A stretch of 64,000 nucleotides of DNA from a virus (IMGVR_UViG_3300033074_000961), one strand, 5' to 3'. Counted from the stretch's first letter, positions 10,472 to 61,677 are shown. Translations and numbers: made by a program. The notes: a model not told the origin generated them from the letters alone.

Positions 10472-10681
10472 TTAGAAACACTCCGTCTTTTTTGTTACAC
10501 CGAATTTCTTCATTGTTCTCTTCATGTCCGCAACCGCATCCCGCTTACGTTTGAAGGGAAGTCGGTTGGTAATCCACGCATCAGCAAACATACCGGGACC
10601 AAACCAAATGGGACATGCCCATTCCCATTGCCTATCAAGGCGACGGTTGAGGGTTCTGCGATAGGAGACAATCTCTTTCAT
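10472..10681 (-). CDS. hypothetical small protein
   Basis: 69-aa ORF between nadE and pncB. Confidence 0.3.
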   Translation of the reverse strand: MKEIVSYRRTLNRRLDRQWEWACPIWFGPGMFADAWITNRLPFKRKRDAVADMKRTMKKFGVTKKTECF

Positions 10682-23024: not shown

Positions 23025-23056
23025 AGTGCGTTATTATACTTTGTTTCGGGTTATTG

Positions 23057-31316: not shown

Positions 31317-32492
31317 TTACTTCGTGGCTGGAGTGGGAGTATTGACGATAGGAGCACCCGTCAAAGTATCAAGACCCTTCACGTAGTTGTCCGTGAGAAT
31401 GTTGACCTTCATATCGGCGGGGAGATACCCCTTGATGCCACTAATGCCCGTTCCGAGACTCTTGGCAACTTCTACCTTCACCCAATTTTCAGAACCGGGA
31501 ACGGCATATGCCTTGAGCAAGAGTTCTTGAGAGGCGGCGGTTGCTTTACCCATAGCGATAACACCTTCGGCCTCGGCAATTTTCTGCAACTTTTGACCTT
31601 CACCCTTTAGCTCCGCTTGCTTTTTCTCTGCTTCGGCAGCAATGGTGACTTGTTCGGCAGAAGCCTTAGCGGCGATAACAACCTTCTCGTTTTCTGCTTG
31701 AGCGTTAATGACCATAATCTTGGCATCACGCTCGGCACCCACGACTTGAGTATTCAAATCGGCTTGTGCCTTTGCCTTGGCAACCAATGCTTCGGCAGTA
31801 GCAGCTTTCTCTTCCTCAACAGCACGTAGTTGCTTTTGCGTAGCAATCTGCTTTGCCTTGATTTCTTCAATGTACTTCGGGTCAAGTTCAATATGCTCAA
31901 TCACGAAGTTTTCTACAATGACACCACGCTCGGCGAGTTCATCGGTTTCTCTCTGGTCTTTGCCTGAGAGAGCGTCTTGAATTTCAGCTTGTAATTTGAC
32001 AAGACCATCACCAGAATAAGCATCAATAGCTTTCATCTTGGTTGCCTTGTCCTTGACGACACGCATGACCACAGGACGGATAATCTTGTCTTCCACGTCC
32101 TGACGAACGGTTTTGTGAATCATGACCAACTTGACGGGATCGAGACGCCAACGAAGATTCAAGGAGATTTTCATATCCTGTCCTTCTTGAGACTGGACGA
32201 GATAAGCATCACGATCACGCCCGACACCTTTTTCACCACCACCTTCGGTCTTGTCATTCATTACAAACACCTGCGAAGCAGCGTCGTACTTATAGACAGT
32301 TTGAGACCAACCCGGGAAGAGGAAATATGTCTTGGGTTGCATGACGGTTTCTTCAACACCACTCGCCCATGTTTCCTTAATGCCGAGTTGATTACCCTCA
32401 ATAGTAACCACCTTGAAGGTCAGGAGGGTAACGACCAAGGCGATGAGCAACACGATGCCGCTCACGATTAACTTGACTGGACTCTTATTCAT
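31317..32492 (-). CDS. SPFH/band-7 (HflK/C-, stomatin-like) membrane protein
   Basis: N-terminal TM LIVSGIVLLIALVVTLL, band-7 core, long Ala/Glu/Lys coiled-coil. The ORF may extend to 32669. Confidence 0.55.
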   Translation of the reverse strand: MNKSPVKLIVSGIVLLIALVVTLLTFKVVTIEGNQLGIKETWASGVEETVMQPKTYFLFPGWSQTVYKYDAASQVFVMNDKTEGGGEKGVGRDRDAYLVQSQEGQDMKISLNLRWRLDPVKLVMIHKTVRQDVEDKIIRPVVMRVVKDKATKMKAIDAYSGDGLVKLQAEIQDALSGKDQRETDELAERGVIVENFVIEHIELDPKYIEEIKAKQIATQKQLRAVEEEKAATAEALVAKAKAQADLNTQVVGAERDAKIMVINAQAENEKVVIAAKASAEQVTIAAEAEKKQAELKGEGQKLQKIAEAEGVIAMGKATAASQELLLKAYAVPGSENWVKVEVAKSLGTGISGIKGYLPADMKVNILTDNYVKGLDTLTGAPIVNTPTPATK

Positions 32493-32562
32493 ACTTGTTT
32501 GTGTGTTTGTTTGCTTACTGTTGATTTGTTTACCGAAATCTTCTGTTGGATATAGCTCAGTG

Positions 32563-32802
32563 CTATTCCGACTTCGGGGTTTTCTTGGACTTGGCATTTG
32601 TTTGCGTTGTTTTGGTTGGTTGTTCTGTTGATGGTTTGCTGCGAATAAATGATACCGTCCAATAAGCAAACCAACAAACGCCTATAGCTGATACCATATA
32701 CCACACGTTTCGGAGAGGGCGAATGCCTTCACCAACGGCGATGAAGAGCAATAACCAGATGACTCCCAAAATACAAAGGATTGCGAATTTTTTGTCTTTC
32801 AT
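32563..32802 (-). CDS. small membrane protein
   Basis: Two hydrophobic helices. Internal start MKDKK. Confidence 0.35.
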   Translation of the reverse strand: MKDKKFAILCILGVIWLLLFIAVGEGIRPLRNVWYMVSAIGVCWFAYWTVSFIRSKPSTEQPTKTTQTNAKSKKTPKSE

Positions 32803-40243: not shown

Positions 40244-40577
40244 AAGGGATTAGTTTATAGTCATAGTCTTCTATGATATGGGGAGTTTCCCACGAAGACC
40301 ATTCATTACAGGTGACAACTTCATAGATACCATCTTTGCACTCATCAAGGTTGATGATGTTTTTGACTACTTCATCAGCACCAGCATTATGACAATCTTC
40401 ATAGAGAAGATTATATCCTTGGCATTTGCGCCGAAGATAACGGAGGGTTTTCTTGATATGTATTCCACTCCCGTCGTGCCATACCGAAGTTGTAAGTCGG
40501 ACAACACACTTGGGCGGGGGTTCTTTATACTTGGCAACCAAGTCATCAAAGGTTAGTGCTGTGATTTCTTTGCTCAT
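40203..40577 (-). CDS. hypothetical protein
   Basis: 124-aa ORF. Confidence 0.35.
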   Translation of the reverse strand: MSKEITALTFDDLVAKYKEPPPKCVVRLTTSVWHDGSGIHIKKTLRYLRRKCQGYNLLYEDCHNAGADEVVKNIINLDECKDGIYEVVTCNEWSSWETPHIIEDYDYKLIPYEETTPLRPVDGK

Positions 40578-41176
40578 CGGGCAACTACTTTGATGAAGTA
40601 GGTTAGTTCAATCTTCTCACCCACCGTAGAGGATACATCCTTGATAAGTTGACCTATCGTAACCGTATCCTCACGGACAAAGGGTTGATTGAGCAGACAT
40701 ATCTGGTTCACTCGCTTCTGAATTTTTCCTTGAATGATCTTGTCCCGCACCGGAGCAGGTTTGCCCTCCGTCTCACGGATGTATTCACTTGCCCACTTCA
40801 AGCGAACATCCTCTGGAATGGACTCCATAGAGATGTACTCGGGAGCAACAGGAGCAGAGACAATATGCATACAGATATTTTTTGCCAATGTAATGAAGGC
40901 ATCACTCTTGGCAACGAAGTCGGTCTGACATGCAAGCACAATCATTGCGCCAACACGGTTGTTGTGGACGTAAGAGTACACAATCTTGGTGTTGGCAGTG
41001 CGATTCGCCATCTCATTGGCATCTGCTTGCTTCTCGGCAATCAGAATCTTGACCGCTTCCGCCTCATCACCATTCGCTCGTTGAAGAGCTTCGTTGATCT
41101 TATTGATAGGTGAAAAGGTGATAGCACGGATATGCTTTACCTTCTCCACATTGGTCATTGTCTTTTCAACATTCAT
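40574..41176 (-). CDS. tsf: translation elongation factor Ts (EF-Ts)-like protein, short form
   Basis: N-terminal UBA-like VKHIRAITFSPINKINEALQ...AEAVKILIAE, core LACQTDFVAKSDAF (compare EF-Ts CETDFVA+N..F), C-terminal LLNQPFVREDTVTIGQLIKD. Confidence 0.55.
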   Translation of the reverse strand: MNVEKTMTNVEKVKHIRAITFSPINKINEALQRANGDEAEAVKILIAEKQADANEMANRTANTKIVYSYVHNNRVGAMIVLACQTDFVAKSDAFITLAKNICMHIVSAPVAPEYISMESIPEDVRLKWASEYIRETEGKPAPVRDKIIQGKIQKRVNQICLLNQPFVREDTVTIGQLIKDVSSTVGEKIELTYFIKVVAR

Positions 41177-41864: not shown

Positions 41865-42656
41865 TCATTTTGGATATTCAGGTATCATTGCAAGGATTTT
41901 ATCCTTATCTTCGGTAAACTTCCACGCACCCTTGGAAACCCATCTAGTGCGCTCAACGGTGTTGTCTTGAATTTGAGCTTCAAAACTCTCTTTCACAATG
42001 AGACGCCCGTTCTTCTCACCATCGGTGTAATCCGTGGCCCAGTTCTTACCCGCTTGGTGAATCATCTCATGCTTGTCCGAAGTGGACTTGCCGTGAAGCT
42101 CCTTGTGCGAGTACAGGGATTGAGCAACCATTGAGACAGAGTTGCGAGCACAATCTTGATTACGCCAGATGAAGTAGTTCATCACTTCAACTCTGTCAGG
42201 AATGGTGAATACACGGGCATCAAAGAATGCCAGATGCTTTCGCATCCTCGCTTCTTTCAAATCCATTGGCAGTGTTTGAGTAATCTTAAACGCTCTCTCA
42301 AGCCGACATTGATTGAATTCCGCAGTCATGATAGATGCCGCCACAGAACACATTTTCTGTAGGTTGCCGTCAAACCATGCACAAGTACCAATGTCAACGA
42401 AGTCGGTCAAAAGTACACTGATCTCGTCAGATTGGGTATAGGCGAAGACCGCCCCCTGAAGTTCTGGGAGCATCGCAATGATTGCGGCGTCAATGTCCTC
42501 AAAGAGTCCTTTGTCAAAAGGTTTCTCAAGTCCTCGGGTGTACGTATGAAATGCCTTACCATCCAGACGGATGATTGTGTAAGTGCGTCTTGGCAGTAAG
42601 AACCGAGTACGGTCCTCATACTGCCCCTTCATTCTGTCGCCAAGTGCGTCTTGCAT
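41865..42656 (-). CDS. Thg1-like protein (tRNA-His guanylyltransferase / 3'-5' nucleotide polymerase family)
   Basis: RLDGKAFHTYTRGLEKPFD, AYTQSDEISVLL, FFDARVFTIP, NYFIWRNQDCARNSVSM follow the Thg1 family motif pattern. Confidence 0.6.
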   Translation of the reverse strand: MQDALGDRMKGQYEDRTRFLLPRRTYTIIRLDGKAFHTYTRGLEKPFDKGLFEDIDAAIIAMLPELQGAVFAYTQSDEISVLLTDFVDIGTCAWFDGNLQKMCSVAASIMTAEFNQCRLERAFKITQTLPMDLKEARMRKHLAFFDARVFTIPDRVEVMNYFIWRNQDCARNSVSMVAQSLYSHKELHGKSTSDKHEMIHQAGKNWATDYTDGEKNGRLIVKESFEAQIQDNTVERTRWVSKGAWKFTEDKDKILAMIPEYPK

Positions 42657-43396: not shown

Positions 43397-43696
43397 TCAT
43401 ACTACATTATACTTTCTCCACCATTCCAAGTCTTCACAGAAAAAGGCATGATACCCACAATGCTCCGTCCAAATAAGAAGCATCTCGTGCCCATCCACCT
43501 TTTGCTTCCTCAAATTTGCATTTTGGAATAAAAAGTGTGACCTATCACCGTGACACACTTCAACCACATAGTTAAACATATCACAGCGAAGGGTCGGACG
43601 CCTTGCTTCAAGGATTTCCTGTGCTTTCTTGATGACGGGATGCATTACGATTTGATGACGTAGGTATTCAGGAACAGCTTCCGTTTGACAATCCAA
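43397..43696 (-). CDS. hypothetical protein
   Basis: 99-aa ORF. Confidence 0.3.
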   Translation of the reverse strand: MDCQTEAVPEYLRHQIVMHPVIKKAQEILEARRPTLRCDMFNYVVEVCHGDRSHFLFQNANLRKQKVDGHEMLLIWTEHCGYHAFFCEDLEWWRKYNVV

Positions 43697-44160
43697 ATGT
43701 CGGTAAGGTCAGTCTGGTTTTGACAAATAAAGTCGCCTTCTTCGCCAGCCTGAACATTCTTCTCCGTGCCAACGGTAGCACCCCACTGCCCGATAATGGT
43801 AAACGAATTGCGGTTGTGTCCATCGGGCGTCGTCATGTCGTGCGTAACTTCAACGCAGTTTACAGCATTGTCGGGCAACGGTTCACAATCCATCCAGCCA
43901 TCTTTGTCAATGCTTTTGACAACGTACTTTTGAAGGAGTTTCTTGGGCATCTGCTGCCAAGCATCGCCTGCTTCGCCGACACAGATAACCACGCCATCGC
44001 CGAGGGGTTCATGCCCTTCCAACGTATCCACGAGGAACTTGCTAGTAACGGTACGGTCAACCAAAAGACTGACCAATGGCTTTGCTTTAATGGGGCGAGT
44101 CTTACTGGCAATTCGCCAATTCGTTATTTTTGTAGTATCAATTCTCATACGCTTCTCCAC
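43645..44160 (-). CDS. hypothetical protein
   Basis: 171-aa ORF. Confidence 0.4.
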   Translation of the reverse strand: MEKRMRIDTTKITNWRIASKTRPIKAKPLVSLLVDRTVTSKFLVDTLEGHEPLGDGVVICVGEAGDAWQQMPKKLLQKYVVKSIDKDGWMDCEPLPDNAVNCVEVTHDMTTPDGHNRNSFTIIGQWGATVGTEKNVQAGEEGDFICQNQTDLTDIWIVKRKLFLNTYVIKS

Positions 44161-45179
44161 CTTCCACCATAGAACAATGCTTTGAGAATGGACATGCCCT
44201 TCGGGTCACGCTTTCCCATGCCGTGTAACGGATCTGGTGCTGCTGTTACGACTTTTGGGTTATAGGATTCTCTGAACGCTTGAAATACATTCACTGCCCT
44301 GTTAAGCAAATCACCCTTGAGACAGAGTTCATCGCACAGCATGAAGTTCTTGTATCCAATATCAGCCAACCACGCCAATTCGTGAAAGTCAGCACACGAA
44401 GGAACGGGGTCGGTAATCACTGACAATAGTATCCGAGAGCCTACTATAGCTTCGGGGTCTTTGTCAACAATCATTTTCACTGCTGCTAAAATCTCGTGGG
44501 GTCTGTCAACTTCGACATACAAATCACCACGGGCGGCAACCAAGTTGCGATTAGGTTTCTTTTTGTATTCGTTTGCCACGTACGCCAACCCCGCCTTGTT
44601 CTCTATCTTTAAGTTGACAATGGCATCATCCCCTACCATTTCAACGAATTGATCTACGTCCCTCTGTGATTCAACGTAGGACAGAAACCAATGCTTAAAT
44701 CCAGCTGCCTTGACTTTCTCAATCTTTTCCAGCTCAACTGGTACAAATTGAGGACCACTAACAACCAGACTTTCATCACGGATATGAAGGGATTCCCCTT
44801 CCTTCACCATATACTTGGGACCACCTAAAAACTTGAGACGGAAACCACCTTCACAAACTTCGTGAAGAAGGGCGACATCCGCCCCTGCCTTGAAAAGAAC
44901 AGGGGTCGGAGTATCAACCTGAATCGGATGGTTAATCCGTATGTCCAAATACTCGTCATTCGGAATGAATTCCGTAACTCGGAGCTGACGCCCCTTAATG
45001 TCGTAATAGAGGGGCACATCAATACGCATATTCTTAATCCTTTCAAGCTCTTCGTCCAACTCAACCATGCTCATCATGGCACTATTCAGACGAATACTTG
45101 AAATGCGGTCATCTGTGGCGAAAGGCGCAAAGTGCGGAAAGCTTGGCCAAAGAGTGACTGACAGATTAAGGTTATTCAT
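44145..45179 (-). CDS. pyruvate-kinase-like / HpcH-type TIM-barrel protein
   Basis: LVAARGDLYVEVD resembles the PK active-site motif MVARGDLGVE. 344 aa, barrel only. Confidence 0.35.
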   Translation of the reverse strand: MNNLNLSVTLWPSFPHFAPFATDDRISSIRLNSAMMSMVELDEELERIKNMRIDVPLYYDIKGRQLRVTEFIPNDEYLDIRINHPIQVDTPTPVLFKAGADVALLHEVCEGGFRLKFLGGPKYMVKEGESLHIRDESLVVSGPQFVPVELEKIEKVKAAGFKHWFLSYVESQRDVDQFVEMVGDDAIVNLKIENKAGLAYVANEYKKKPNRNLVAARGDLYVEVDRPHEILAAVKMIVDKDPEAIVGSRILLSVITDPVPSCADFHELAWLADIGYKNFMLCDELCLKGDLLNRAVNVFQAFRESYNPKVVTAAPDPLHGMGKRDPKGMSILKALFYGGRWRSV

Positions 45180-45184
45180 ATTGA

Positions 45185-46180
45185 TTAGATTAAGGGTTTC
45201 ATCGTCTTACCGCTCCCGTCACCAATCTTCTTGACGGACTTGCGGAGGACAGACTTCCCACCACCCAACTTGGCACGGGTCGTTTCTGACGTTTTGTGAA
45301 TCGTTGCGAGCGACTTGTAAACGGTCTTGACCTGATCGGCAGATTGACGGTCTTCAATTTCGTGCTCAAAGTAAGCGATGCGATTCGCTTCCTTGGCAAG
45401 AATGCCGAAGATAACGTCCACCACACGCCCAGCCTCGGGAAGGTTGGCAATATGGTCATCACCGAGCAGTTCTGCCCAATGCTTCGTAATGCGACGGTCC
45501 TCTTCACTCAACGTATTCCCCGAAGAAGACCCATAGGGCTTACGAATGAGATAGACGGAGAACTTTTCCTTGAGTTTCTTGAACACCTGAGCGGTGGACA
45601 AGGATTTCTCCAACTTAATCCCGAGCAGCTGTTCGGCATGGTCGGGAGAAATGCTATCGTAGCATTGTTCGTCACCGATGAAAATCATAACGGGTTTGAC
45701 CGCCTTGGGGATTTCCATCTTCTCGGCAGCGAATAAAGCAGCGAGTTCATAGGTTTCTGTGGTTTGCCCACCACCACCACCTTCAATTACCAACTCCTTG
45801 AGTCGGTCCTTGAGTTCGAGACCCTTGGCGAAAGGACGCACTTGCAACGGGTACTTCTCGTTACAATAAGCATCACCAATTGCCATGAAGCAGATTTCGG
45901 CATCTTCACCCATGTACTCCTTCAACTCGTTTTCGAGATAAGGGAGTTTGGAGAAGATTGTGGCAGGCCAATCACCCATGCTGCCAGTCTCGTCAACGAC
46001 AATCACCAGTGGAGCAGAACTGTCGGTCTTGACGTTTTCGGCAATGAGGTCTTTGGTTCCCTTGCCAGCGGATACGGCAGCAGAATAACTGCGACCAACG
46101 TAAGCATCATAAGTGCGACGAGCACTTGCAAAATCGTGTCCTTTCCAGACACCGGGACTATAATCACCTGATTCAGACAT
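45185..46180 (-). CDS. vWA domain protein
   Basis: MIDAS VVDETGSMGD; IFIGDEQ. Confidence 0.55.
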   Translation of the reverse strand: MSESGDYSPGVWKGHDFASARRTYDAYVGRSYSAAVSAGKGTKDLIAENVKTDSSAPLVIVVDETGSMGDWPATIFSKLPYLENELKEYMGEDAEICFMAIGDAYCNEKYPLQVRPFAKGLELKDRLKELVIEGGGGGQTTETYELAALFAAEKMEIPKAVKPVMIFIGDEQCYDSISPDHAEQLLGIKLEKSLSTAQVFKKLKEKFSVYLIRKPYGSSSGNTLSEEDRRITKHWAELLGDDHIANLPEAGRVVDVIFGILAKEANRIAYFEHEIEDRQSADQVKTVYKSLATIHKTSETTRAKLGGGKSVLRKSVKKIGDGSGKTMKPLI

Positions 46181-46185
46181 ATGTT

Positions 46186-47193
46186 TTACTTTCCAGCGAT
46201 GGGTTTCATGCCCGAACGATGGCGTCCGAACACCTTTTTACGCAACTCCACAATTGTATCACAAAGGTCTTCCTTGCCATACTGCGGACGGGAGTTCACG
46301 TCTCGTGCAATCAATCGCTTAATGAATGCACACATTTCTTCGGGTACATCTTTAGGCACCATCTTACGCTCAACGTATTCTGGACCACCCGATAAAGCAT
46401 AAATCATCGTCATTCCAAGACTGTAATAGTCAGACTCGGGAATGAGGGGTTTGCCAGCTATTTCTTCGGGAGGGGCAAAGTAAGGAGTGAACCCCTTTGC
46501 TTCGGCAGAACCCGTGGGTTTCACCATTGACAAACCGAAGTCCACCAGAACTGCCATGTGCCTATCCTCTTGCACGATGATATTCTGGGGTTTCAAATCG
46601 CCATGCACCACGCCATGACGATGAATGTAATTAAGAGCATTGAGGATTCTTTCAGTAATCCACGCAACGGTTTCTGGTTCCATTGCTCCTACTCGTTTCA
46701 CTTCTTTCTCAAGAGTGAGACCGGGAATGTAGCTCATGACGAGCAGTACCCGTCCATCTTCCAACTTATACAAATCCCTCATGGCGGGGAGAGCGTAGTG
46801 TCTCAAATCCCACAACACTCGGCACTCTTGAACAAGCATATCCACATCATCCAAAGAGACGTTAGAGCAGTCTTTGATACAGACCAATTCTTTGAGAATG
46901 GAATGCTCTGCTTTGTAGGTGCGACCAAACCCGCCTTCGGCAATAACAGATTGAACTTTGTAAGGTCCAATTATCTTGGTAGTGCCTTCGATACGTTCAC
47001 GGTCAAAATCACGACGCTTACGGGGGTCGGTAAGAATGTCATGTGCTTCGTTGAGGGAACGGGCATGAGACCCCACAGTGGCATGGTCTAAATCAGGATG
47101 ATGTTCCTTCATTAGTGCCCGATATGCCGCCTCAATCACTGAGGGACTTGCTTTCGGGTGGACTTGGAGGACTTGATACCAGTCGTTTTTCAT
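46186..47193 (-). CDS. J-domain (DnaJ) – Ser/Thr protein kinase fusion
   Basis: N-terminus DWYQVLQV...MKEHHPD (J domain with HPD). Kinase HRHGVVHGDLKPQNII, DFG, APE-like PPE. Confidence 0.65.
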   Translation of the reverse strand: MKNDWYQVLQVHPKASPSVIEAAYRALMKEHHPDLDHATVGSHARSLNEAHDILTDPRKRRDFDRERIEGTTKIIGPYKVQSVIAEGGFGRTYKAEHSILKELVCIKDCSNVSLDDVDMLVQECRVLWDLRHYALPAMRDLYKLEDGRVLLVMSYIPGLTLEKEVKRVGAMEPETVAWITERILNALNYIHRHGVVHGDLKPQNIIVQEDRHMAVLVDFGLSMVKPTGSAEAKGFTPYFAPPEEIAGKPLIPESDYYSLGMTMIYALSGGPEYVERKMVPKDVPEEMCAFIKRLIARDVNSRPQYGKEDLCDTIVELRKKVFGRHRSGMKPIAGK

Positions 47194-47225
47194 TGTGGCG
47201 ACATATTATACCACAACCAGCGTTT
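47193..47225 (-). promoter_or_regulatory. consensus σ70 promoter (TTGACA-N15-TGgTATAAT), short leader to the J-kinase operon
   Basis: CGCTTGACAaaacgctggttgTGgTATAATatgtcgccacaATG on the minus strand. Confidence 0.5.
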
Positions 47226-47380
47226 TGTCAAGCGGATATTTTTAATCGCCTCGTTGATCGGCATCTCGGGCAGTTAGCCAACCCACATTCCATTCACCAC
47301 GAGCATCTTCATCAGGATAATCGGGGCAATCTTTTTGAGGCACACCATCAAAATACGCTTTGAATCCAGCATCCCACGCT

Positions 47381-47617
47381 TCAAGTTTTTCTTTGTCTGT
47401 CATAAGTTTCAAATGTTATACCAAATCCCTCCGACTCAAATTGAGGAGGAGTAAGATGTCGAATTACTGTGGCAGCACAAGCAGTATCTTGTTTCAATTC
47501 ACAAATGACTTCGCCGTGATACATCATGAAGAATTCAGATGCGTTTTCAGCACGGACTCTTCCACCATTATTCAGGTGTTGTAATGCTTCACTCGGCGTC
47601 ATCTTCATTTCCTTCAA
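47381..47617 (-). CDS. hypothetical protein
   Basis: 78-aa ORF. Confidence 0.3.
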   Translation of the reverse strand: MKEMKMTPSEALQHLNNGGRVRAENASEFFMMYHGEVICELKQDTACAATVIRHLTPPQFESEGFGITFETYDRQRKT

Positions 47618-47874: not shown

Positions 47875-48690
47875 TTATCCTTTCATAGGATTGGGATTAG
47901 CACCACATTCTGGACAAGCCTTCGTCGGCATACCATCACTGGCATCCATTGGTCCCATCGGAGATGCTTCACCCATTGCCCACAATCCATATCCCCAACA
48001 AGTCGTACACTTCTTTGTCTGTGGCGGTTTGATAGGTGTATTCAATTGATTAGCAATATCTACAATCTGTTTGGATACACAATCGGGGATAACAATCTTG
48101 TATCCGCCCTTCTTTTTAGGAGGAAGTTCAATACACTTACCTTCTTTGATTTCCTTCATTGCCTCTTTGAGTTTACCCTTGATTTCTTCGGCATGGTCAT
48201 CACACTTCTTTTCAGTCCATCCATAAAAAGTCAACTCCCACAAAATCTCAGCAACAACCTTTTCCATAGAATACTTGGCGTCATTGATGATGGGCGTGTC
48301 AATGATTTTGCTCCACGAAGTAAACCCCATTGCAAAAGTCTTGTTGTGTTTATTGAGATTGCAATTGTAGTACTTACCCTTCTTGGGGAATTTATTTCCA
48401 CCCCAAGGTTTTGCACCTTTGGGAGGGGCAACATAGCGAGGGTTTAAGAAACAGACATCAGCGTACTTATGTTTATCAAACCAATCTTCTGCCTCATGTA
48501 CCAAAATGGACATGGAGTACTTGCGTGTACGAGGCTTTTCAAGAAGTTCCTTTACGACAGACGTATAGGCATCTACCGTTTGTTGCAACGTCGGTGCCTT
48601 AGACTTGGGTTCGATTTCACTGTCCTTTTTATTGATTAGACGATAGACCTCATCAAGGTCAACTGACATAAGTGCTTGTCGTAGAGTCAT
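47875..48690 (-). CDS. hypothetical protein with C-terminal Cys cluster
   Basis: 271 aa; CTTCWGYG...CPECG. Confidence 0.45.
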   Translation of the reverse strand: MTLRQALMSVDLDEVYRLINKKDSEIEPKSKAPTLQQTVDAYTSVVKELLEKPRTRKYSMSILVHEAEDWFDKHKYADVCFLNPRYVAPPKGAKPWGGNKFPKKGKYYNCNLNKHNKTFAMGFTSWSKIIDTPIINDAKYSMEKVVAEILWELTFYGWTEKKCDDHAEEIKGKLKEAMKEIKEGKCIELPPKKKGGYKIVIPDCVSKQIVDIANQLNTPIKPPQTKKCTTCWGYGLWAMGEASPMGPMDASDGMPTKACPECGANPNPMKG

Positions 48691-49283: not shown

Positions 49284-49645
49284 TGTCTTATGAATTTCTC
49301 TGCCAGTATCTTGTCTCGTCGTGGTTCTCCATTGAGATCGTTAATCAAACATTCAAGAATGATACCGCTAACGTCGTCTGCATGATTCACTCCATAGGTT
49401 GTGAGGAACCACATGCATAGAATACTATCCTTATCCCATAAAGACCATTCATTACGAAGATACATGCCGAGAGAAAAGTGAAGTTGCGTAGAAAGCATCT
49501 TCTTGATTTCTTCCTTTTCTGCGTCAGAAAGTGCCTCCTTGAGCAGGACGAGTGCTTCCTCAAGATTGACGGGAACCTTATCTTGGTTCAGATTCATATG
49601 GTATTTCGTAAGGATACGGAAAGAAATCCGCATCGTAATTATCAA
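49265..49645 (-). CDS. hypothetical protein
   Basis: 126-aa ORF. Confidence 0.35.
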   Translation of the reverse strand: MIITMRISFRILTKYHMNLNQDKVPVNLEEALVLLKEALSDAEKEEIKKMLSTQLHFSLGMYLRNEWSLWDKDSILCMWFLTTYGVNHADDVSGIILECLINDLNGEPRRDKILAEKFIRHWKKQS

Positions 49646-50324
49646 AGGGGAATTGAAAGTTGTGTCTCAGTTTATGTTTCCGCATGGGTGTCACCAACTG
49701 ATACTTTTCTCCCTCGCCCCGTTCGAGTACCAATATCTCACAGTTCTTAGGATTACCCCACGATTCAAATTCTTCCACCGAGCAATGAAACCATCGCATA
49801 ATGAATAGGCGCATGGTCATTCCATGAGTGACAATCACACAATTGCGAGGAAAGTCTTTCTTCTGAAAGTCCCGATGCATTGTATTCATGAAGTCGCTTA
49901 CACGGTCAAATACATCCGCACAGGATTCACCACCATCACGAAAACGATAGTAAAAGTGTCCGTAGCTATCCCGATATTCCTCAACCTTCTCCTTGTATCC
50001 TTCCCGAGATTCCATATTCTGTCCCCACTCTTGCTCACGAAGGCGAGGGTCTTCGTAATAACGATACAAATCTGGGTCTGGAATAGGGAATGATTTGCGG
50101 ATACCGGCATAGGTCTGACGAGTACGCCAGAAGGGAGAAACGTAGAACTGAATGGACTCGTGTGGTTGAATGTAAGTCTTGAGAGACAATCCTGCACTTT
50201 CTGCTTGCTGTTCGCCCAAGGGAGTAAGTTGAAGAGCGTAGTCGGGGGTTGTAGCGTATGCTTCTTTGTCGGCATTACCCACAGACTGTCCGTGCCGGAC
50301 GAGGAATATCTTATCGGGTTTCAT
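49578..50324 (-). CDS. histidine-phosphatase superfamily (phosphoglycerate-mutase-like) protein
   Basis: LVRHGQSVGN (RHG motif); HG later in sequence. Confidence 0.55.
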   Translation of the reverse strand: MKPDKIFLVRHGQSVGNADKEAYATTPDYALQLTPLGEQQAESAGLSLKTYIQPHESIQFYVSPFWRTRQTYAGIRKSFPIPDPDLYRYYEDPRLREQEWGQNMESREGYKEKVEEYRDSYGHFYYRFRDGGESCADVFDRVSDFMNTMHRDFQKKDFPRNCVIVTHGMTMRLFIMRWFHCSVEEFESWGNPKNCEILVLERGEGEKYQLVTPMRKHKLRHNFQFPFDNYDADFFPYPYEIPYESEPR

Positions 50325-50957: not shown

Positions 50958-52514
50958 TTACACCACAACACGGTCGTAACGAGGATTGTTCACCGTCTCG
51001 TAAACGATGTCCATAGGACTGAAGCTCTTCGCTGAGAGCAGCGACTTCAAGATGCTTGGTGAGCATCCCGAGACAAGGGCAGTGCCATTGTCGTCCGCAC
51101 GGATTGGGAAGTTATCGTTGCGGGAGGCAACGTTCCACCACACGATGCGAGGCAGCGTGTATCCATGCTTCTCGTACTTCTCACGGATGACTTGGAAGTT
51201 GGTCTTGCTGTTGCAACCCGAGGCTGCATCAAACTCCATGTCGGAGACCACATAGAGAACGCTTGGCATATCCTTTGCCGCAACACGGTTCTGCACCGCA
51301 GTACGGAGGATAAGGTCAAACGCAGACTGGAGATTCGTGGACTGAGCCCAGTTGGACTTGTCCATGTTATCCCACTTCTCAAGCAAGGTTTGTCCAACCA
51401 ACTTTTGGAAGGTTGGCGAGCTGGAGAAGTTCATCCAGAAGTCCTTGAAAGGACCAACGTTACGCTCTGCGAAGTAAATCGCAAGCGAGACCGACACGAG
51501 AATTGGCAGCATGTCATGGGTGAACATGGAGCCAGACACGTCGGCAATAACAATACCATAGTGCTCGTTACCTTCCAGCCAGTTTGGCATGGACTTCCAT
51601 TGCAGGTCTGCCTGCTTTGCGCTCATGGCGTCTGGACGACCATGCATGACGATGGAACGCAGGATTTCGTATGGGAATACGGCACCGGCATTCATCTTCT
51701 TCTCGCCCTTCTCAACGGACTTGAGATAGGCAGCGTAACGCTCCTGATCGTGCTTACCGAACGCCTTGCGGTAGTTCAGCGAAGCCTTGGAAGGAACGTG
51801 CTCGAAGTCAATCTTGGCCCAGTCGCCAGCGCACATCTTGACTTCAAGTACATCAATGTGCTTACGCAGCGCAGAGAGAATCTTGCGGTAACGCTTTGGA
51901 GTCAGTTCAAGAGCCTCACGGGTCTTGCGAGCAAGACGACGGGACTCCGCAGAACTGGTGTTCTCGGACTTGAGCCACTTGGCAAGCAGCGAGACGGACT
52001 CGCCCTTCTTCATGTTCTTGAGGTCTGCCTTCAACTGGGTAGCGAAAAGGGCATAGACTTCCGACTCAAGTGGGGTTCCCACGAGAGCATAGAGGTCATC
52101 ATAGCGTCCGAAGAACGCCACGTTCTCAAGGTTCTTGCGAGCAACGTCGGTGTAGTTCTGGGCGAGCCAGTTCACCAACGTACGGAAGGTCTTACGCTCT
52201 CCCTGTCCCTCACGTACGTCACGGAGGTAGAACAGAATCTTGGTAGCCAAGAGACGGTCCTGTGCAAATGCACGGGAGAAAAGATTGATTACGTCCTGCT
52301 CGGCACGAGAGCGGATTGCTCCACCAGCACCGAAGAAGTCGAGGACATAGTTGAGCGTGCTCTTGTTGGTCAGAGCACCCTTCTCGGTATAACCGAGATT
52401 TCCCTGATTCTGCATAGCAGACAGGAATGGGTTCTGTGAGAGCACAGTGGTTTGAGGCACAAACTGAGTTGAGCGGGTCTTACGAGTCACGTTCTTCATA
52501 ACGGTTCCTTTCAT
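50958..52514 (-). CDS. TROVE-like N-terminal domain + C-terminal vWA protein (Ro60/Rsr-like or DUF2828-type)
   Basis: C-terminal MIDAS IVIADVSGSM. N-terminal GYTEKGALTNKST...LDFF and REGQGERKTFRTLVNWL resemble TROVE motifs. Confidence 0.45.
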   Translation of the reverse strand: MKGTVMKNVTRKTRSTQFVPQTTVLSQNPFLSAMQNQGNLGYTEKGALTNKSTLNYVLDFFGAGGAIRSRAEQDVINLFSRAFAQDRLLATKILFYLRDVREGQGERKTFRTLVNWLAQNYTDVARKNLENVAFFGRYDDLYALVGTPLESEVYALFATQLKADLKNMKKGESVSLLAKWLKSENTSSAESRRLARKTREALELTPKRYRKILSALRKHIDVLEVKMCAGDWAKIDFEHVPSKASLNYRKAFGKHDQERYAAYLKSVEKGEKKMNAGAVFPYEILRSIVMHGRPDAMSAKQADLQWKSMPNWLEGNEHYGIVIADVSGSMFTHDMLPILVSVSLAIYFAERNVGPFKDFWMNFSSSPTFQKLVGQTLLEKWDNMDKSNWAQSTNLQSAFDLILRTAVQNRVAAKDMPSVLYVVSDMEFDAASGCNSKTNFQVIREKYEKHGYTLPRIVWWNVASRNDNFPIRADDNGTALVSGCSPSILKSLLSAKSFSPMDIVYETVNNPRYDRVVV

Positions 52515-54454: not shown

Positions 54455-55276
54455 GTGGCATACTCGTGGGCGATGATACAATTGTTCAACGAGGACTTCC
54501 TCAAGGCAGATTTTACTTCCATCCCACCAATCAATTTGGTGGTAACGTCCCCGCCGTACAATGTAGGCATTGAATATGACAAGCATGACGACACAATGAC
54601 CTATGAGGAATATCTTGTTTGGTGCAAAAAGTGGATTGCTAAGCTTTATTCATTGATGGCGGATGACAGTCGTATCTGCATAAACATTCCATTCTCCATT
54701 ACACCGATTCACTTGAATAAAGTCAAGGGTGCCGAGGACATCAACTACCCCGTATCAGCAGACTACACCGAAATCTGTCAGGAAGTAGGATTCAAATACT
54801 ATCGTAATGTCATATGGCAGAAGTTAGGAAGCAATAAGACGTGTTGGGGAAGTTGGCGGTCTGCCCGTGCTCCTTTCATCATTGACCCCAACGAGTGTAT
54901 CCTTATCTTTTACAAGGGGAATTGGAAGCGAAAAGAAAAGGGCAAGTCCACCATTCGTGGTCGTGAATTCATGACTTATGTAAAGAATCTGTGGCACATG
55001 CATCCCGAGACACAATCCAAGCATCCCGCAGCCTTTCCGTTGGAACTACCGAATAGGTGTATCAAACTTCTATCCTATGAAGGAGACCTTGTGTGTGACC
55101 CATTCTTAGGGTCTGGCACAACAGGCGATGCCGCAGTCAGATTGAAGAGAAGTTTTGTAGGTGTGGAGAAGAGCGAAGAGTATTTCAAAATGGCAAAAGA
55201 AAGGATTGATACAGCAGAAATTCAAACTTCTTTGATTGCATCAATCATGCCAGATGGTGACGAAGATGATGATTGA
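54455..55276 (+). CDS. DNA methyltransferase, β-class amino-MTase (second SPPY enzyme)
   Basis: VTSPPYNVG then CDPFLGSGTT. Confidence 0.65.
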   Translation: MAYSWAMIQLFNEDFLKADFTSIPPINLVVTSPPYNVGIEYDKHDDTMTYEEYLVWCKKWIAKLYSLMADDSRICINIPFSITPIHLNKVKGAEDINYPVSADYTEICQEVGFKYYRNVIWQKLGSNKTCWGSWRSARAPFIIDPNECILIFYKGNWKRKEKGKSTIRGREFMTYVKNLWHMHPETQSKHPAAFPLELPNRCIKLLSYEGDLVCDPFLGSGTTGDAAVRLKRSFVGVEKSEEYFKMAKERIDTAEIQTSLIASIMPDGDEDDD

Positions 55277-56336
55277 ACCAAATCTGTTCTACGAGAAAGG
55301 ACTGATTCATGCCAGAGGACACCACGATCCTGTCGGAAAGTGTTTGACCTTGTTGGCAGGTTCGCAGGGCGTTGTTTGCTCTAATCCACGAAGCGTTTTC
55401 TTCGGATGTCCCGAAATTCAAAAGGAATACGAACGAAATATCCTCAACAGTACGGCGAGTGCTGGTAATGATACTCAGTACTATCTTCAAAAAGACGTAA
55501 AGTGTTATGCCACTGATAACCGAGATGAACTTGATGTTGCGGCATCTCTTATTGCGGGTGCATTGATGAAGGGCGATACGTTGTGGAGAAATAAGGACGG
55601 AATGAGTATGAGGCAAATTCGTTCTACTCTACTCATCGAAGCTCCTGTTGAAAATTCAGATGAAGATATTCAACGATTCAATGCCGCAGCAACTCGGGCA
55701 TTTAACATACTTTCGGCAGACCGAGATGGAATGATTGACATTTTATCGAAGGCATGGCACTTCAAACAAATTCTTGGCACTAAGAACGAAGACCGATTCA
55801 TTATTCCCCGACAAGTGGACCACGGGATTGCTAAACTTTTCAACCTTCTCTGTGAAGAGGAAGAAGCATATGACCTTTCCATCCCTACAGATGGATATAC
55901 AATTTCTGACAAGATGGCAAACGACCTGTTCCACCAAAGCACGAGTAAAAAAGTCAGAAGTGGTATCATCAAGGACAATCTTCAAATGTCCAATACTCGT
56001 TCAGGTCAATCCAGCAACAATCACCAACGTCCACGGTTCGATTGCTTGCTTGCCATGCAGTACATCCCCTATTTGGTATGTGGAATTGTGCCCTACCACA
56101 AAATTGTATCACATTTCCGTCATACCGATGGGGGATGGGTATTGAAGAGAGTTCCCATAGACCATTTCCAATACATTCTCTCTCCCACCGAAACAATTCC
56201 TCCCCAAGACATCTCCCCCGACGATAAAGCGGAGATGGAAAACTTTGCACAACTAGTTAAGGGAGAGTTTTTTCCGAAACTCCTTGACAAACGACCAAAA
56301 AAAGCGGATACTACGCCGCAAATTGAAGTATGGTGA
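55263..56336 (+). CDS. hypothetical protein between methyltransferase genes
   Basis: 366-aa ORF. Start trimmed to the Met past the upstream stop. Confidence 0.4.
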   Translation, partial: KMMIEPNLFYEKGLIHARGHHDPVGKCLTLLAGSQGVVCSNPRSVFFGCPEIQKEYERNILNSTASAGNDTQYYLQKDVKCYATDNRDELDVAASLIAGALMKGDTLWRNKDGMSMRQIRSTLLIEAPVENSDEDIQRFNAAATRAFNILSADRDGMIDILSKAWHFKQILGTKNEDRFIIPRQVDHGIAKLFNLLCEEEEAYDLSIPTDGYTISDKMANDLFHQSTSKKVRSGIIKDNLQMSNTRSGQSSNNHQRPRFDCLLAMQYIPYLVCGIVPYHKIVSHFRHTDGGWVLKRVPIDHFQYILSPTETIPPQDISPDDKAEMENFAQLVKGEFFPKLLDKRPKKADTTPQIEVW

Positions 56337-57274
56337 AACCGAAGACGAAACTTACTCCTGTCCGCTACCCCGGCGGCAAGTCCAACGCTTTGAAGTTCTT
56401 GGACAAGCACCTACTGCGTTCATTTTCCACCTACCGTGAACCATTCTTTGGTGGTGGGTCTGTCGGTCTCTACCTGATGCAGTTCAACAAGGATGCAGTC
56501 TATTGGGTCAACGACTTGTTCTATCCCGTGTACTGTTTCTGGAAGGTTCTCTACGAGCGTCCCGATGAAATGGTGAAGTATCTCCTTGCTCGTCATGAGA
56601 CGTATTCCAAACCGCAAAGCGGGATTGCTGGACAAGACATAAAGGTAAAAGGAGTGCCTACCAAGGCTGCCGAAGCTGCTCGGGCACTACATGCATTCTG
56701 CCGCCAGCAAATTCAAATCAATATCGAACAGAAGGACGAGTTTCATACCGCTTGCCATTGGTATATCCTCAACAAGACTTCATACTCAGGTATGGCAATG
56801 ATTGGTTCATATGCGCCTCTTGCATGGGACCAGAACTTCACCATCAATTGCATCAACAATCTTCCCAAGACCACCGCACTTATGCGGAGCGTAAAGGAAG
56901 TTCGCATTACCAATTTGGATTATGCCGACATGCTGAAACCCGATGGCGACCACGACGAGAATACGTTTGTATTTCTCGACCCGCCCTACAAAATCCCCCA
57001 CAGTCTCTACGGGGATGGTGGAGACATGCATGAAGGATTTGACCATCGCCGTTTCTATGAGGAAGTCATCAAGTGTCCAACTCGCTGGTTGATTACCTAT
57101 AACAAAGACCCTGAAATTGACGCATGGTTCTTAGGATACCATAAACTCCCGTGGGAACTTCAGTACACCATGAAGGCGGCAAAGCGTGAGGGGCAAGAAG
57201 GGTCTGCCAAAACTGGCAAATCAGGTAAGAAGGGACGAGAGTTATTGATAGCAAACTATCCGCTTACAGCCTGA
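56330..57274 (+). CDS. dam: Dam-type (α-class, D12) DNA N6-adenine methyltransferase
   Basis: YPGGK, EPFFGGGSV (motif I), FLDPPY (motif IV). Confidence 0.7.
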   Translation: MVKPKTKLTPVRYPGGKSNALKFLDKHLLRSFSTYREPFFGGGSVGLYLMQFNKDAVYWVNDLFYPVYCFWKVLYERPDEMVKYLLARHETYSKPQSGIAGQDIKVKGVPTKAAEAARALHAFCRQQIQINIEQKDEFHTACHWYILNKTSYSGMAMIGSYAPLAWDQNFTINCINNLPKTTALMRSVKEVRITNLDYADMLKPDGDHDENTFVFLDPPYKIPHSLYGDGGDMHEGFDHRRFYEEVIKCPTRWLITYNKDPEIDAWFLGYHKLPWELQYTMKAAKREGQEGSAKTGKSGKKGRELLIANYPLTA

Positions 57275-59416: not shown

Positions 59417-59620
59417 ATGGCAGAACCAACACGTAAAAGTTACTCGCTTCGCCAAGCAATCAATGCTTTCGCAGGCGTAGATACCGAGCAATCCATCCGC
59501 AACGACACTTGTACCATGTGTCGGAAACCCGCACTTGCCTTCAAAGATGAACTAAGCAAGAAAGAGTTCACCATCAGCGGCATGTGCCAAGAGTGCCAAG
59601 ACAAAGTTTTTGGCTCTTGA
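59417..59620 (+). CDS. small zinc-ribbon protein
   Basis: CTMCRK...CQECQD. Confidence 0.4.
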   Translation: MAEPTRKSYSLRQAINAFAGVDTEQSIRNDTCTMCRKPALAFKDELSKKEFTISGMCQECQDKVFGS

Positions 59621-59655
59621 CAACTGACGATAAAACGCTAAACTCAAGCACAATT

Positions 59656-60918
59656 ATGGCAACTCTAATCAAAGAAGTAAAGCTGATCATGACCGAGGTT
59701 GGCACCAACAACAACAAGTGGTGGACCGGACAGCTTTTTGACGATGGCACAGTCAAAGCGACTTGGGGACGTGTCGGATACTCTGGTGACTCGGGTGAAT
59801 GGCAGGGTGGACAATCGTATTTGGATAAGAAAGTCAAGGAGAAGATCAAGAAGGGTTATACTGAGTTGAAGACTGTTGGTAACGCTGGTATTGCGCCGTC
59901 CAGTTCTGCTCCCGTTCGCAATGCAGACCTTCACCAGATTGCCAAAACTCAACTTATCAAATCTTCCAACCCGACGCTGGAACGTTTGATTAAGCGTTTC
60001 GTTGAAGCAAACGTCCACAAGATTACTCGTGACACGCAAATCACCTACAATTCATCAACGGGTTTGTTTGCCACGCCTCTCGGTATTGTCACGATGGAAG
60101 GTTTGACCGATGCTCGTGACTTGCTCGCCAAACTTGCTCCTATCGTTCGTGGTCGTCGCTTCGGGTCCGAAGCAGATGCTCTTTTGAGTAAGTATCTTCG
60201 TCTCATTCCTCAACATTTGGGTATGGGGCGATTCTCTTGCCAGTCGGTTATCCCCGACGACAATGCTTTGCAGAAGCAGAGCGACTTGATTGACTCTTTG
60301 GAGTCGTCCTATCAAGCAATGTCCACGCAACCGGCTCAAGCGGGTCAACCCGTCAAGAAGCAGGAAACCGTGTTCCAAGTGGACTTGGACGTACTCACCG
60401 ACCAATCCGAGCGCAATCGTTTGGAACGTTATTTTGAAACGTCCAAGAAACGTATGCACGGGTATGACAACGTGCGAGTGAAGGAAATCTTCGCCGTCAA
60501 TGTCCACGATATGACTCGTGGGTTTGAAAACAGCACCACTCCCATTAAAGAAGTGTTCCACGGCACTTCCCAAGCAAACTGCCTCTCCATTCTCAAGAGT
60601 GGACTCAAGGTGTCGCCTCCGTCCACTGCTGCCATCGCTGGCAAGATGTTCGGCAACGGCATCTATGGCGCAATCAACTCCACCAAGAGCCTTGGTTATA
60701 CTTTCAACCGTTGGGGTCAAGGTGGAGTGGGCGATGCGGGATGGCTCTTCATCTGTCAGTTCGCAATGGGCAAGATTTACGAGACTCGGCACAGCTGCTC
60801 TCCGCAACGGGGTTACGACTCTGTATGGGCGAAGGCTGGCGGCAGTCTGGCGAATGATGAATTGATCGTCTATCGCAATACCCAAGTCAAAATCACTCAC
60901 CTTTTGGAGTGCAAATAA
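59656..60918 (+). CDS. WGR domain – PARP-like catalytic domain ADP-ribosyltransferase
   Basis: N-terminus ATWGRVGYSG (WGR). C-terminus VFHGTSQANCLSILKSGLKV...GKMFGNGIYGA...NDELIVY parallels the PARP1 H-G-S / Y / E catalytic core (LLWHGSR...GYMFGKGIYFA...YNEYIVYD). Confidence 0.65.
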   Translation: MATLIKEVKLIMTEVGTNNNKWWTGQLFDDGTVKATWGRVGYSGDSGEWQGGQSYLDKKVKEKIKKGYTELKTVGNAGIAPSSSAPVRNADLHQIAKTQLIKSSNPTLERLIKRFVEANVHKITRDTQITYNSSTGLFATPLGIVTMEGLTDARDLLAKLAPIVRGRRFGSEADALLSKYLRLIPQHLGMGRFSCQSVIPDDNALQKQSDLIDSLESSYQAMSTQPAQAGQPVKKQETVFQVDLDVLTDQSERNRLERYFETSKKRMHGYDNVRVKEIFAVNVHDMTRGFENSTTPIKEVFHGTSQANCLSILKSGLKVSPPSTAAIAGKMFGNGIYGAINSTKSLGYTFNRWGQGGVGDAGWLFICQFAMGKIYETRHSCSPQRGYDSVWAKAGGSLANDELIVYRNTQVKITHLLECK

Positions 60919-61193: not shown

Positions 61194-61598
61194 ATGGGAC
61201 GTTGCATAATTCAACTTGATGGTAAGCTAATGCATTGGACTTCGGTTAGTGATGGTCCGTGCTCTCTCTTGCTCACCGAAGAACAGTTTCGCCGCTATTG
61301 GCGAGAAGAGTTTGGTCGTGACCGATGGCCTGAACTTGCCGAGCTTCTTCTGACCGTCAAGGCGAAGGGTACTACTGCCCGAGGATATACGGTTGACGAC
61401 ATTATTAAAGAAAACCGTGCTGGTGAAAAGGGTAAGAAACTCACCAAGGCACAAATCATTGAAGCATACACTCCCACCGATGCCGAATTTGAAGAATGGT
61501 GTAAGAACCGAGACAAATTCGCCGAAGACCAGTACAAGGAATGGGAGGAAGTGTGGACAGAAAGATTCTCCCCGAAGAAAGAGAAAAAAGGGAGTTGA
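61194..61598 (+). CDS. hypothetical charged protein
   Basis: Internal start MGRCIIQ of ORF 61158..61598. Confidence 0.35.
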   Translation: MGRCIIQLDGKLMHWTSVSDGPCSLLLTEEQFRRYWREEFGRDRWPELAELLLTVKAKGTTARGYTVDDIIKENRAGEKGKKLTKAQIIEAYTPTDAEFEEWCKNRDKFAEDQYKEWEEVWTERFSPKKEKKGS

Positions 61599-61677
61599 CA
61601 TTTTCCACGGGTGATGTATAATAACCCCGTAACGTTGGAAAACAACAAACGACAACAACAAAATCAAATAGAACCAT

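Follow-up and report, generated by a model that had tools for sequence, protein, structure and literature searches.

What would a virus do with a protein kinase that carries a J domain, and why should its gene be followed by genes for a von Willebrand factor A (vWA)-like protein and a pyruvate kinase (PK)-like enzyme? This question is raised by three genes arranged head to tail along the minus strand of a stretch of 64,000 nucleotides (nt), one strand, of virus IMGVR_UViG_3300033074_000961 (the whole stretch is called the window below), which is a large phage. The trio forms a conserved cassette that moves horizontally, and the window holds a phage-borne copy of it. From gene order and motifs, a role can be proposed with a rough probability of 40%: the (J-)kinase and the vWA protein would be a regulatory-chaperone adaptor pair that controls an adjacent purine-nucleotide-forming enzyme, possibly with a link to NAD+/adenylate salvage. 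The features of the trio are:

46186..47193, minus strand: J-domain/Hanks Ser/Thr kinase fusion of 335 amino acids (aa), from Pfam DnaJ and Pkinase
47002..47184, minus strand: J domain, residues 4-64 (PF00226, E = 1.2e-14)
46285..46962, minus strand: kinase domain, residues 78-303 (PF00069, E = 2.6e-35)
46186..46233, minus strand: conserved kinase C-terminal tail FGRxRSGMKPIxG, with R318, F322, G323, R324, S327 and K330 invariant or nearly so
45185..46180, minus strand: vWA-fold protein with a metal ion-dependent adhesion site (MIDAS), 331 aa, from structure comparison and motifs
45980..45994, minus strand: MIDAS motif D63-E-T65-G-S67, with D63, T65 and S67 invariant in 36 sequences
44145..45179, minus strand: pyruvate kinase homologue of 344 aa, an A-domain TIM barrel with a short B domain and without the C domain
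44601..44609, minus strand: K191-I-E193 (KIEN motif: catalytic Lys and Mg2+-ligand Glu), invariant and aligned to yeast and E. coli PK
44523..44525, minus strand: D219 of RGDLYVE (equivalent to the Mg2+-ligand Asp of PK RGDLGVE), invariant and aligned to PK

The first protein joins two well-recognised domains. Its J domain scored 54.6 bits against PF00226 (Pfam gathering cut-off 27.8) and carries an HPD motif at residues 32-34 (H32-P33-D34, nt 47092-47100), while its kinase domain scored 122.5 bits against PF00069 (cut-off 31.7). The kinase motifs GEGGFG, K107, E123, HGDLKPQN (197-204, nt 46582-46605), DFG (218-220) and APPE are all present, and K107, E123, HGDxKPxN, DFG and APE are invariant across 31 aligned kinase homologues. 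Judged by these residues, the protein would be a catalytically complete kinase of the non-RD type (HGD); no sensor domain was found in it with Pfam. Both domain calls had been made in an earlier sequence-only reading of this DNA, and both were borne out. A Pfam search for all the domains named there placed DnaJ and Pkinase above their cut-offs, but left PF00224 below threshold on the third protein and returned nothing for the vWA-like protein.

The fusion itself is genuine. The possibility that a frameshift or an assembly error had merged a J-protein gene and a kinase gene was considered and rejected, since the same protein of ~330-350 aa, with both domains, recurs in more than 120 independent homologue clusters (55-100% identity; JGI, ENA, NCBI and Logan assemblies). 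Moreover, its orthologues occur in complete or large contigs of up to 378 kb, and a continuous alignment of homologues crosses the J-to-kinase junction. No point was found in favour of such an artefact, the probability of which is negligible. The HPD is kept in at least 90% of the close homologues. Across the whole family the picture is more varied: among 76 near-full-length kinases a J-like domain is present in 61 and the J domain is absent from 14, including a deep Woesearchaeota/Nanoarchaeota clade, and the HPD is kept in 44 of the 61 J-like domains and degenerate in 17. The J domain is an accessory part of the cassette.

At its N-terminus the second protein has a conserved peptide and helix; these are followed by a vWA core, a helical bundle in the C-terminal part and a disordered tail that ends in KPLI. 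It gave no match in Pfam, NCBIfam or PADLOC, nor in a PDB profile search, and was recognised by structure comparison only, which gave it a vWA fold with the NorD vWA as a structural match. The MIDAS is of the variant form DxTxS. The downstream motifs GGGG..E142 and D170-E171 are likewise invariant in the 36 sequences, the distal MIDAS residues (GGGG-Q-T-T-E region, D170) being assigned by motif position only. The fold and the invariant D63-x-T65-x-S67 together uphold the vWA (MIDAS) assignment. The C-terminal tail is conserved as GKS..R....K(P/S)L(I/L)-COOH.

The third protein was assigned mainly through its fold. Its PF00224 score of 26.6 bits is just under the cut-off of 30, its TIGR01064 score is 31.3 against a curated cut-off of 306, and a precomputed PF00224 match is present on many of its homologues. 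When an AlphaFold2 model of the protein (pLDDT 88.9) was compared with the PDB in Foldseek, the best 50 matches were all pyruvate kinases (E ~1e-18, ~350 columns, TMq ~0.7), as the call of a pyruvate-kinase-like barrel had anticipated; the family profile also found pyruvate kinases in the PDB, at E = 6e-10. An hhalign comparison with PykF gave 94% probability over an alignment that covered only the C-terminal half of the barrel, and sequence identity to canonical pyruvate kinase is ~16-18%. Structure comparison shows the B domain inserted in the barrel after β-3, as in the pyruvate kinase family, and KIEN, RGDxxVE, S248 and PxPSCAD are invariant in the PK-like family and align with those of the enzymes from yeast and E. 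coli. The protein thus shares with canonical pyruvate kinases (PykF/PykA, PKM) the TIM-barrel A domain, the B insertion, and the KIEN, RGDxxVE, T/S-x-x-L-x-S and PxPTRAE-like motifs. In contrast to these enzymes of 470-530 aa, however, the PK-like proteins are only ~310-345 aa long and are always linked to kinase and vWA genes. Indeed, the PK_C domain, which holds the allosteric site and the tetramer interface, is missing altogether: the protein ends ~40 residues past the barrel in a disordered tail, while the pyruvate kinase targets of the structure search run to 460-530 aa. In the window's phage clade only (window 44145-44190 and loci L088/L089/L091), the PK-like protein has a C-terminal extension that ends in GGRxRS(V/I)-COOH and resembles the kinase-tail FGRxRS. 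The basic-Ser pattern common to the tails suggests phospho-acceptor or docking sites.

Homologues of the three proteins (1223, 969 and 1294) recur on the same contigs, and chance is excluded by the E-values and the conservation. In 86 non-redundant loci the three cassette families are the only ones conserved, in 82, 79 and 77 loci; the genes are colinear on one strand in 83 of the 86, and in the other three the kinase gene is divergent. The three genes adjoin one another in an unchanged order in the uncultured phage LR745208.1 (485 kb), and likewise on Patescibacteria chromosomes, where they lie between RuvA/IleRS or FBP-aldolase/IMPDH genes, and in DPANN archaea, where they lie between Spt5/L7Ae/S12/S7 or eIF2α/Nop10/GINS genes. 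A scan with one genome for each species turned up a relative of the vWA-like protein in 220 of 185,579 species representatives, almost all from either CPR (the candidate phyla radiation) or DPANN, a figure that rests on the sequence patterns used in the scan. In IMG/VR, 17 viral contigs of 45-441 kb carry the trio. The proteins are 50-65% identical between domains of life. In a rough neighbour-joining tree, made without support values and used only qualitatively, phage copies fall into five or more clades that are scattered between CPR sequences, and the window's clade adjoins a contig labelled Saccharibacteria.

A PhoU-domain protein of ~315 aa is encoded within a few kb of the trio in 14 loci, mostly of DPANN (among them L005, L018, L021, L023, L025, L026, L036, L042 and L056), either upstream and divergent or downstream. 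By eye its N-terminus is AbrB/SpoVT-like, and it may be a lineage-specific regulator.

The cassette also has a sister module. Distant relatives of the vWA-like protein (phrog_2971, 25-35% identity) are encoded in 57 other IMG/VR phage loci, and in 55 of these the next gene specifies an adenylosuccinate-synthetase-like enzyme (PF00709). A kinase-fold gene precedes the vWA-like gene in 9-11 of the 57 loci, most with an N-terminal J-like segment; the kinase-fold protein of locus L109, for example, matches DnaJ at E = 1.9e-25. The sister-module loci are numbered L105-L167, together with L168 (Catera) and L169 (Rhizobium phage RHph_TM21B). The module of the cluster C1 mycobacteriophage Catera is located as follows:

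148907-152623, Mycobacterium phage Catera (L168): genes in the order gp249 ('kinase'), gp250 (vWA-like), gp251, gp252 (adenylosuccinate-synthetase-like)

Matches were found in 201 mycobacteriophage records, and more than 200 deposited cluster C genomes label the J-like (pseudo)kinase only 'serine/threonine kinase'. In an alignment of eight (pseudo)kinases, namely Catera gp249 and seven IMG/VR proteins, the HPD is present in six and the J segment is missing from two. In every protein whose kinase core is readable, that core is degenerate, with HGA or an equivalent for HGD..K and DWC, GWS or GWG for DFG, and the sister-module proteins therefore look like J-domain pseudokinases. The cluster C1 and phrog_2971 modules have in common with the window trio the same vWA-like family (30-33% identity), the same gene order and an enzyme gene in third place. 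They differ in that gp249, unlike the window kinase, has a degenerate core (HGA; DWC for DFG) and is likely a pseudokinase, and in that the third enzyme of the C1 module is PurA/PurZ-like where the window trio has a PK-like one. Read across both modules, the kinase-fold and vWA-like proteins are the constant part and the purine-nucleotide-forming enzyme the variable one, and this modular exchange of the third enzyme behind the kinase and vWA genes points to a 'pair plus enzyme' design. No study of the function of the cluster C mycobacteriophage module was found in the literature.

A metabolic setting is most evident in the J-less Woesearchaeota/Nanoarchaeota clade (L071-L084; e.g. L077 497-8941 and L071 3124-10488), where the trio is part of a compact NAD salvage operon on a single strand. 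Its other genes encode isochorismatase/nicotinamidase-like and QRPTase/NAPRTase-like proteins, NadE, Nudix, NMNAT, ADP-ribosylglycohydrolase, NAD kinase and nucleoside hydrolase, and in four loci the start of the kinase gene overlaps the stop codon of NMNAT. In the Rhizobium phage, PRTase and NMNAT/Nudix genes are found 3 kb from the vWA-like/purA pair. The archaeal clade also has one or two conserved proteins of ~120 aa, without a family match, encoded between the vWA and PK-like genes. The window encodes a Prs-like ribose-phosphate pyrophosphokinase (2724-3686), an NAPRTase-family enzyme (10678-11874), an NMNAT/Nudix fusion (18015-18944) and a PARP-catalytic/WGR protein (59584-60918), a set for NAD+ salvage and ADP-ribosylation that is reminiscent of phage NAD+ reconstitution pathways.

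In the window the trio is preceded by a promoter and followed by a further open reading frame (ORF):

47205..47231, minus strand: sigma-70-type promoter, TTGACA (47231-47226), 15-nt spacer, TGn-TATAAT (-10 at 47210-47205)
43645..44148, minus strand: downstream ORF of 167 aa from the ATG at 44148, overlapping the PK-like stop codon (ATGA)

The promoter can also be read in an alternative register (TTGACA, 17-nt spacer, TAATAT). The exact pattern TTGACA-N15-19-TATAAT occurs three times in the window against 0.05 expected, and no Shine-Dalgarno sequence precedes the J-kinase ATG in the window sequence. Related phages have TTGACA-17-TAGAAT-7-ATG (L088/L089), TTGACG-17-TATATT-8-ATG (L091) and TTGACA-17-TATAAT-6-ATG (L103) at the same place. 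Throughout the window's phage clade the -35/-10 arrangement is kept and only 6-11 nt separate the -10 and the ATG, and the transcript is thus predicted to be leaderless or nearly so. In other phage clades the TTGAC(A/G) -35 is kept, and the leaders are longer and have Shine-Dalgarno-like sequences. Conservation in the clade therefore supports a real promoter and a leaderless mRNA. The consensus promoter of the sequence-only reading accordingly stands, but its 11-nt leader does not: 11 nt is the distance from the end of the -10 hexamer (TATAAT) to the J-kinase ATG. The tight, co-transcription-style packing described there is likewise seen, although both intergenic gaps measure 5 nt rather than 4-5; gaps of this size suggest coupled translation. 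The ATGA overlap indicates that the transcription unit probably continues into the downstream ORF, which is preceded by AGGTGGAG. This ORF has no family match, is not conserved in the related loci and is not part of the cassette. Two more exact promoters, both TTGACA-N16-TATAAT, are found at window 23033-23060 (minus strand) and 61595-61622 (plus strand); as these two lie at least ~56 nt away from the following start codon, a leaderless arrangement is seen at the cassette only.

How might the trio work? If the role proposed above is correct, the kinase and the vWA protein would form a regulatory or adaptor pair for the enzyme of the third gene. The vWA MIDAS site and the kinase-fold protein would bind the enzyme and/or each other's conserved tails, with the MIDAS site taking up an acidic or phosphorylated peptide. 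Where the kinase is active it would phosphorylate the basic, Ser-containing C-terminal tails, namely FGRxRS of the kinase, GKS of the vWA protein and, in the window clade, GGRxRS of the PK-like protein. The J domain, with its HPD intact in the window copy, would recruit the host's DnaK to the complex, and the enzyme would be assembled, remodelled or switched. Such a scheme would be analogous to the MoxR-vWA 'activase' pairs (PMC7159879), with Hsp70 in place of the AAA+ ATPase, and to the ArnC-driven switching of the ArnA-ArnB complex (PMC12852372). Its components have precedents, in that a Hanks kinase acting on a vWA partner is established for ArnC/ArnB (PMC12852372, PMC6509490), the partnership of a vWA protein with a Hanks kinase is also found in PpkA (PMC1262709), and vWA domains that bind peptides and serve an ATPase as co-chaperone are an established theme (PMC7159879). 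The DnaK system is present in many DPANN (PMC8204110). The output would be controlled, phosphoenolpyruvate (PEP)-dependent nucleotide phosphorylation, i.e. a supply of ATP or purine nucleotides, which in an infected cell would serve the nucleotide and NAD+ salvage programme of the phage.

Several points weigh against this proposal. Every mechanistic step in it is drawn from gene order and motifs. The degenerate HPD in 17 of 61 J-like domains and the absence of the J domain from 14 of 76 kinases mean that Hsp70 recruitment is dispensable for the core function. Recruitment of host DnaK, which the sequence-only reading had expected, is therefore plausible for this copy but does not hold as a universal function, the HPD or the J domain being missing in ~40% of the family. 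No linked dnaK, grpE or phosphatase gene was found by tblastn in the window or in any of the locus flanks, in a search of limited sensitivity; with no dnaK there, the partner Hsp70 would be the DnaK of the host. In the PK-like protein the PK motifs of the N-terminal part (R-x-N, D-x-K-G) were placed by eye only, Ala apparently stands in for the K+-site Ser, and the substrate may be other than ADP/PEP. The association with NAD genes is strong only in one related archaeal clade, where it could be inherited synteny. Finally, the patchy spread (~220 of 185,579 species) suits an accessory or a conflict role no less than a metabolic one.

That last point leads to the alternative that the trio is a conflict module. 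Cellular copies would then be of an anti-virus or abortive-infection type, with the kinase as sensor or switch, the vWA protein as peptide sensor and the PK-like enzyme as metabolic effector, and the phage copies would have been captured for counter-defence or superinfection exclusion, e.g. to refill ATP/purine pools drained by host immunity. A patchy, transfer-prone spread over Bacteria, Archaea and at least five phage clades would suit this, as would the frequency of vWA domains in conflict systems (PMC7159879) and the other counter-defence-type genes of the window phage (NAD+ salvage, PARP, ADP-ribose-related, rII). The best PADLOC matches of the kinase are, moreover, mad6 and PD-T4-6 (E ~1e-39 to 1e-40), with MAD6/PglW in NCBIfam. 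These matches, however, cover the generic kinase domain only and are far under their cut-offs (111 bits against 460 for MAD6), and the vWA-like and PK-like proteins match no defence model in PADLOC-DB v2, so that membership of a known defence system was rejected. An identity of 50-65% between domains of life is unusually high for defence genes, the cellular copies have ribosomal, tRNA-synthetase and glycolytic genes as neighbours and do not sit in islands, and there is no nuclease, pore or NADase effector; on balance a conflict role is unlikely. It is less likely again that the J-kinase, in the manner of T7 gp0.7, acts mainly on host proteins, its J domain hijacking DnaK or delivering substrates and the vWA and PK-like genes being functionally independent auxiliaries that merely share the operon. 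Phage kinases are known, and so are phage J-domain proteins that manipulate host DnaK, such as Rki of RB43 (PMC3486835); the promoter, with its leaderless arrangement, points to expression by the host's RNA polymerase, and the kinase has no sensor domain. The trio nevertheless stays together in 83 of 86 loci, which include cellular genomes without any 'host' to take over, and the kinase/vWA pairing is kept in the sister module even with a catalytically dead kinase.

A further possibility is that the trio belongs to a known vWA-kinase system that controls an unrelated process, and here the adjacency of vWA and Hanks kinase genes is the main likeness. The TerY-P triad reportedly described by Anantharaman, Iyer and Aravind in 2012 consists of the TerY vWA protein, a PP2C phosphatase and a Ser/Thr kinase. 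Among pairs of a MoxR AAA+ ATPase with a vWA protein are CbbQ-CbbO, NorQ-NorD and RavA-ViaA. In such pairs a MIDAS vWA adaptor brings an ATP-driven remodeller to a client enzyme, which resembles the role proposed for the trio; unlike them, the trio has an integral kinase and no MoxR gene, and its sole link to an ATPase is a J domain that would recruit an unlinked Hsp70. In MoxR-vWA ternary conflict systems the MoxR-like AAA+ gene lies by a vWA gene and is accompanied by a VMAP-type third component (PMC7159879), and in Deinococcus a vWA-STPK-FHA-PP2C operon has been described (bioRxiv 10.64898/2026.01.23.701218). The archaellum regulatory module of Sulfolobus is ArnA/ArnB/ArnC-ArnD (PMC6509490, PMC12852372), in which ArnB partners with the FHA/zinc-ribbon protein ArnA and a PP2A phosphatase. 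The trio has no linked FHA or phosphatase gene, its kinase bears a J domain, and its conserved third partner is a PK-like enzyme (an adenylosuccinate-synthetase-like one in the sister module). As in the TerY-P triad and the Deinococcus operon, the vWA gene adjoins a Hanks kinase gene, but PP2C and FHA are absent from the 86 neighbourhoods, with a J domain and a PK-like enzyme found instead. Clustering of the neighbours in the 86 loci gave no fourth conserved family, and hence no PP2C, no MoxR AAA+ and no ArnA-like FHA/zinc-ribbon gene; tblastn with PrpC, of low sensitivity, found nothing in the window or the loci. The kinase matches TCAD9 below threshold (21 bits, cut-off 40; E = 1.9e-4), in a segment that overlaps the catalytic loop. 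Membership of the TerY-P, MoxR-ternary and ArnAB systems was rejected on these grounds, and this explanation is very improbable. The likeness to bacterial ternary signalling systems drawn by the sequence-only reading thus fails on membership.

Nor is the joining of a J domain and a kinase in one chain without precedent, although the sequence-only reading was aware of no description of this architecture. It is not unique to this sequence, since a large family exists in CPR, DPANN and huge phages. DNAJB1-PRKACA, the fusion kinase of fibrolamellar carcinoma (PMC5768683; PDB 4wb7), has the same order of N-terminal J domain and C-terminal kinase in a single polypeptide and is the top PDB sequence match of the J-kinase (E = 1.1e-21). 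GAK/auxilin-2 also combines a J domain with a kinase (PMC3957475). In contrast to the J-kinase, however, DNAJB1-PRKACA is a somatic human fusion, the J domain of GAK is C-terminal, and neither is prokaryotic or viral or linked to vWA and PK genes. Rki of phage RB43 is a phage-encoded J domain with an HPD that acts through host DnaK and stabilises sigma-32 (PMC3486835); unlike the J-kinase it is small and stand-alone, without a kinase and without vWA or PK partners. In sum, all the single domains, the vWA-Hanks kinase partnerships and the presence of J and kinase domains in one chain are already known. What appears to be new is the trio with its C-domain-less pyruvate kinase, its spread across domains of life and phages, and the parallel adenylosuccinate-synthetase module with J-pseudokinases. 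No description of the trio, or of J-domain kinases in phages, CPR or DPANN, was found in the literature, though an earlier survey may list the DnaJ and Pkinase combination.

A wider generalisation is doubtful. It would hold that the trio and its sister module represent an unrecognised class of Hsp70-coupled enzyme activase or switch cassettes, exchanged among CPR, DPANN and large phages and tied to NAD+/adenylate salvage, in which the enzyme, either a pyruvate kinase without its C domain or a synthetase of the PurA/PurZ type, is handed to DnaK by a MIDAS vWA adaptor together with a J-domain (pseudo)kinase. If true, phages and ultra-small symbionts would have chaperone-gated control of their ATP/AMP supply. 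The coupling of Hsp70 to a metabolic enzyme by a J domain through a vWA adaptor would be a new mechanism of Hsp70 targeting in prokaryotes and viruses, and a pyruvate kinase without its allosteric domain, with trans-acting regulators encoded alongside, would be a new form of control over the last ATP-yielding step of glycolysis in fermenters. Cassettes shared across domains mark gene traffic between ultra-small symbionts and viruses, and may help to assign hosts to huge phages. The design that recurs, in which a purine-nucleotide enzyme is preceded by a (J-)kinase-fold protein and a vWA adaptor, is present in the cultivable cluster C mycobacteriophages (Bxz1/Catera), which makes it genetically testable in M. 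smegmatis.

The window around the cassette has small, densely packed genes, mostly on one strand, which include those for thymidylate synthase, DNA ligase, DNA methyltransferases, EF-Ts-like and Thg1-like proteins, rIIA/rIIB homologues and NAD salvage enzymes. The rIIB-like (21605-22771; phrog_609, E = 4e-50) and rIIA-like (23057-25480; phrog_612, E = 3e-86) genes, both on the minus strand, mark it as part of a large phage with T4-like or jumbo relatives. Scans of the window for tRNA genes and Rfam families found neither, and a nucleotide search of the trio region against 50,697 phage records gave no match. The genes flanking the trio region are:

31317-32669: SPFH/Band-7 protein
49578-50324: histidine-phosphatase-family protein
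47875-48690: DUF6557 protein
54455-57274: two DNA methyltransferases

Closer to the cassette, an ORF of 56 aa (47242-47412, minus strand) lies directly upstream of the trio promoter; its match to ribosome modulation factor is sub-threshold (PF04957, 20 bits against 27.9, E = 6e-4). An EF-Ts-like protein of 200 aa is encoded at 40574-41176 (minus strand; PF00889, E = 1.8e-25) and a Thg1-like tRNA-His guanylyltransferase at 41865-42656 (minus strand; PF04446, E = 4.7e-27). Six phage loci (the window, L001 and L088-L091) have the Thg1-like gene downstream of the trio, and in L088/L089 it comes immediately after the PK-like gene. A protein of 518 aa (50958-52514, minus strand) matches DUF2828/DUF7788 at E ~1e-43 to 1e-48 and, judged by its motifs, is probably TROVE/Ro-like with a vWA-type C-terminal domain; if so, it would be a second, unrelated vWA-type protein close to the cassette.

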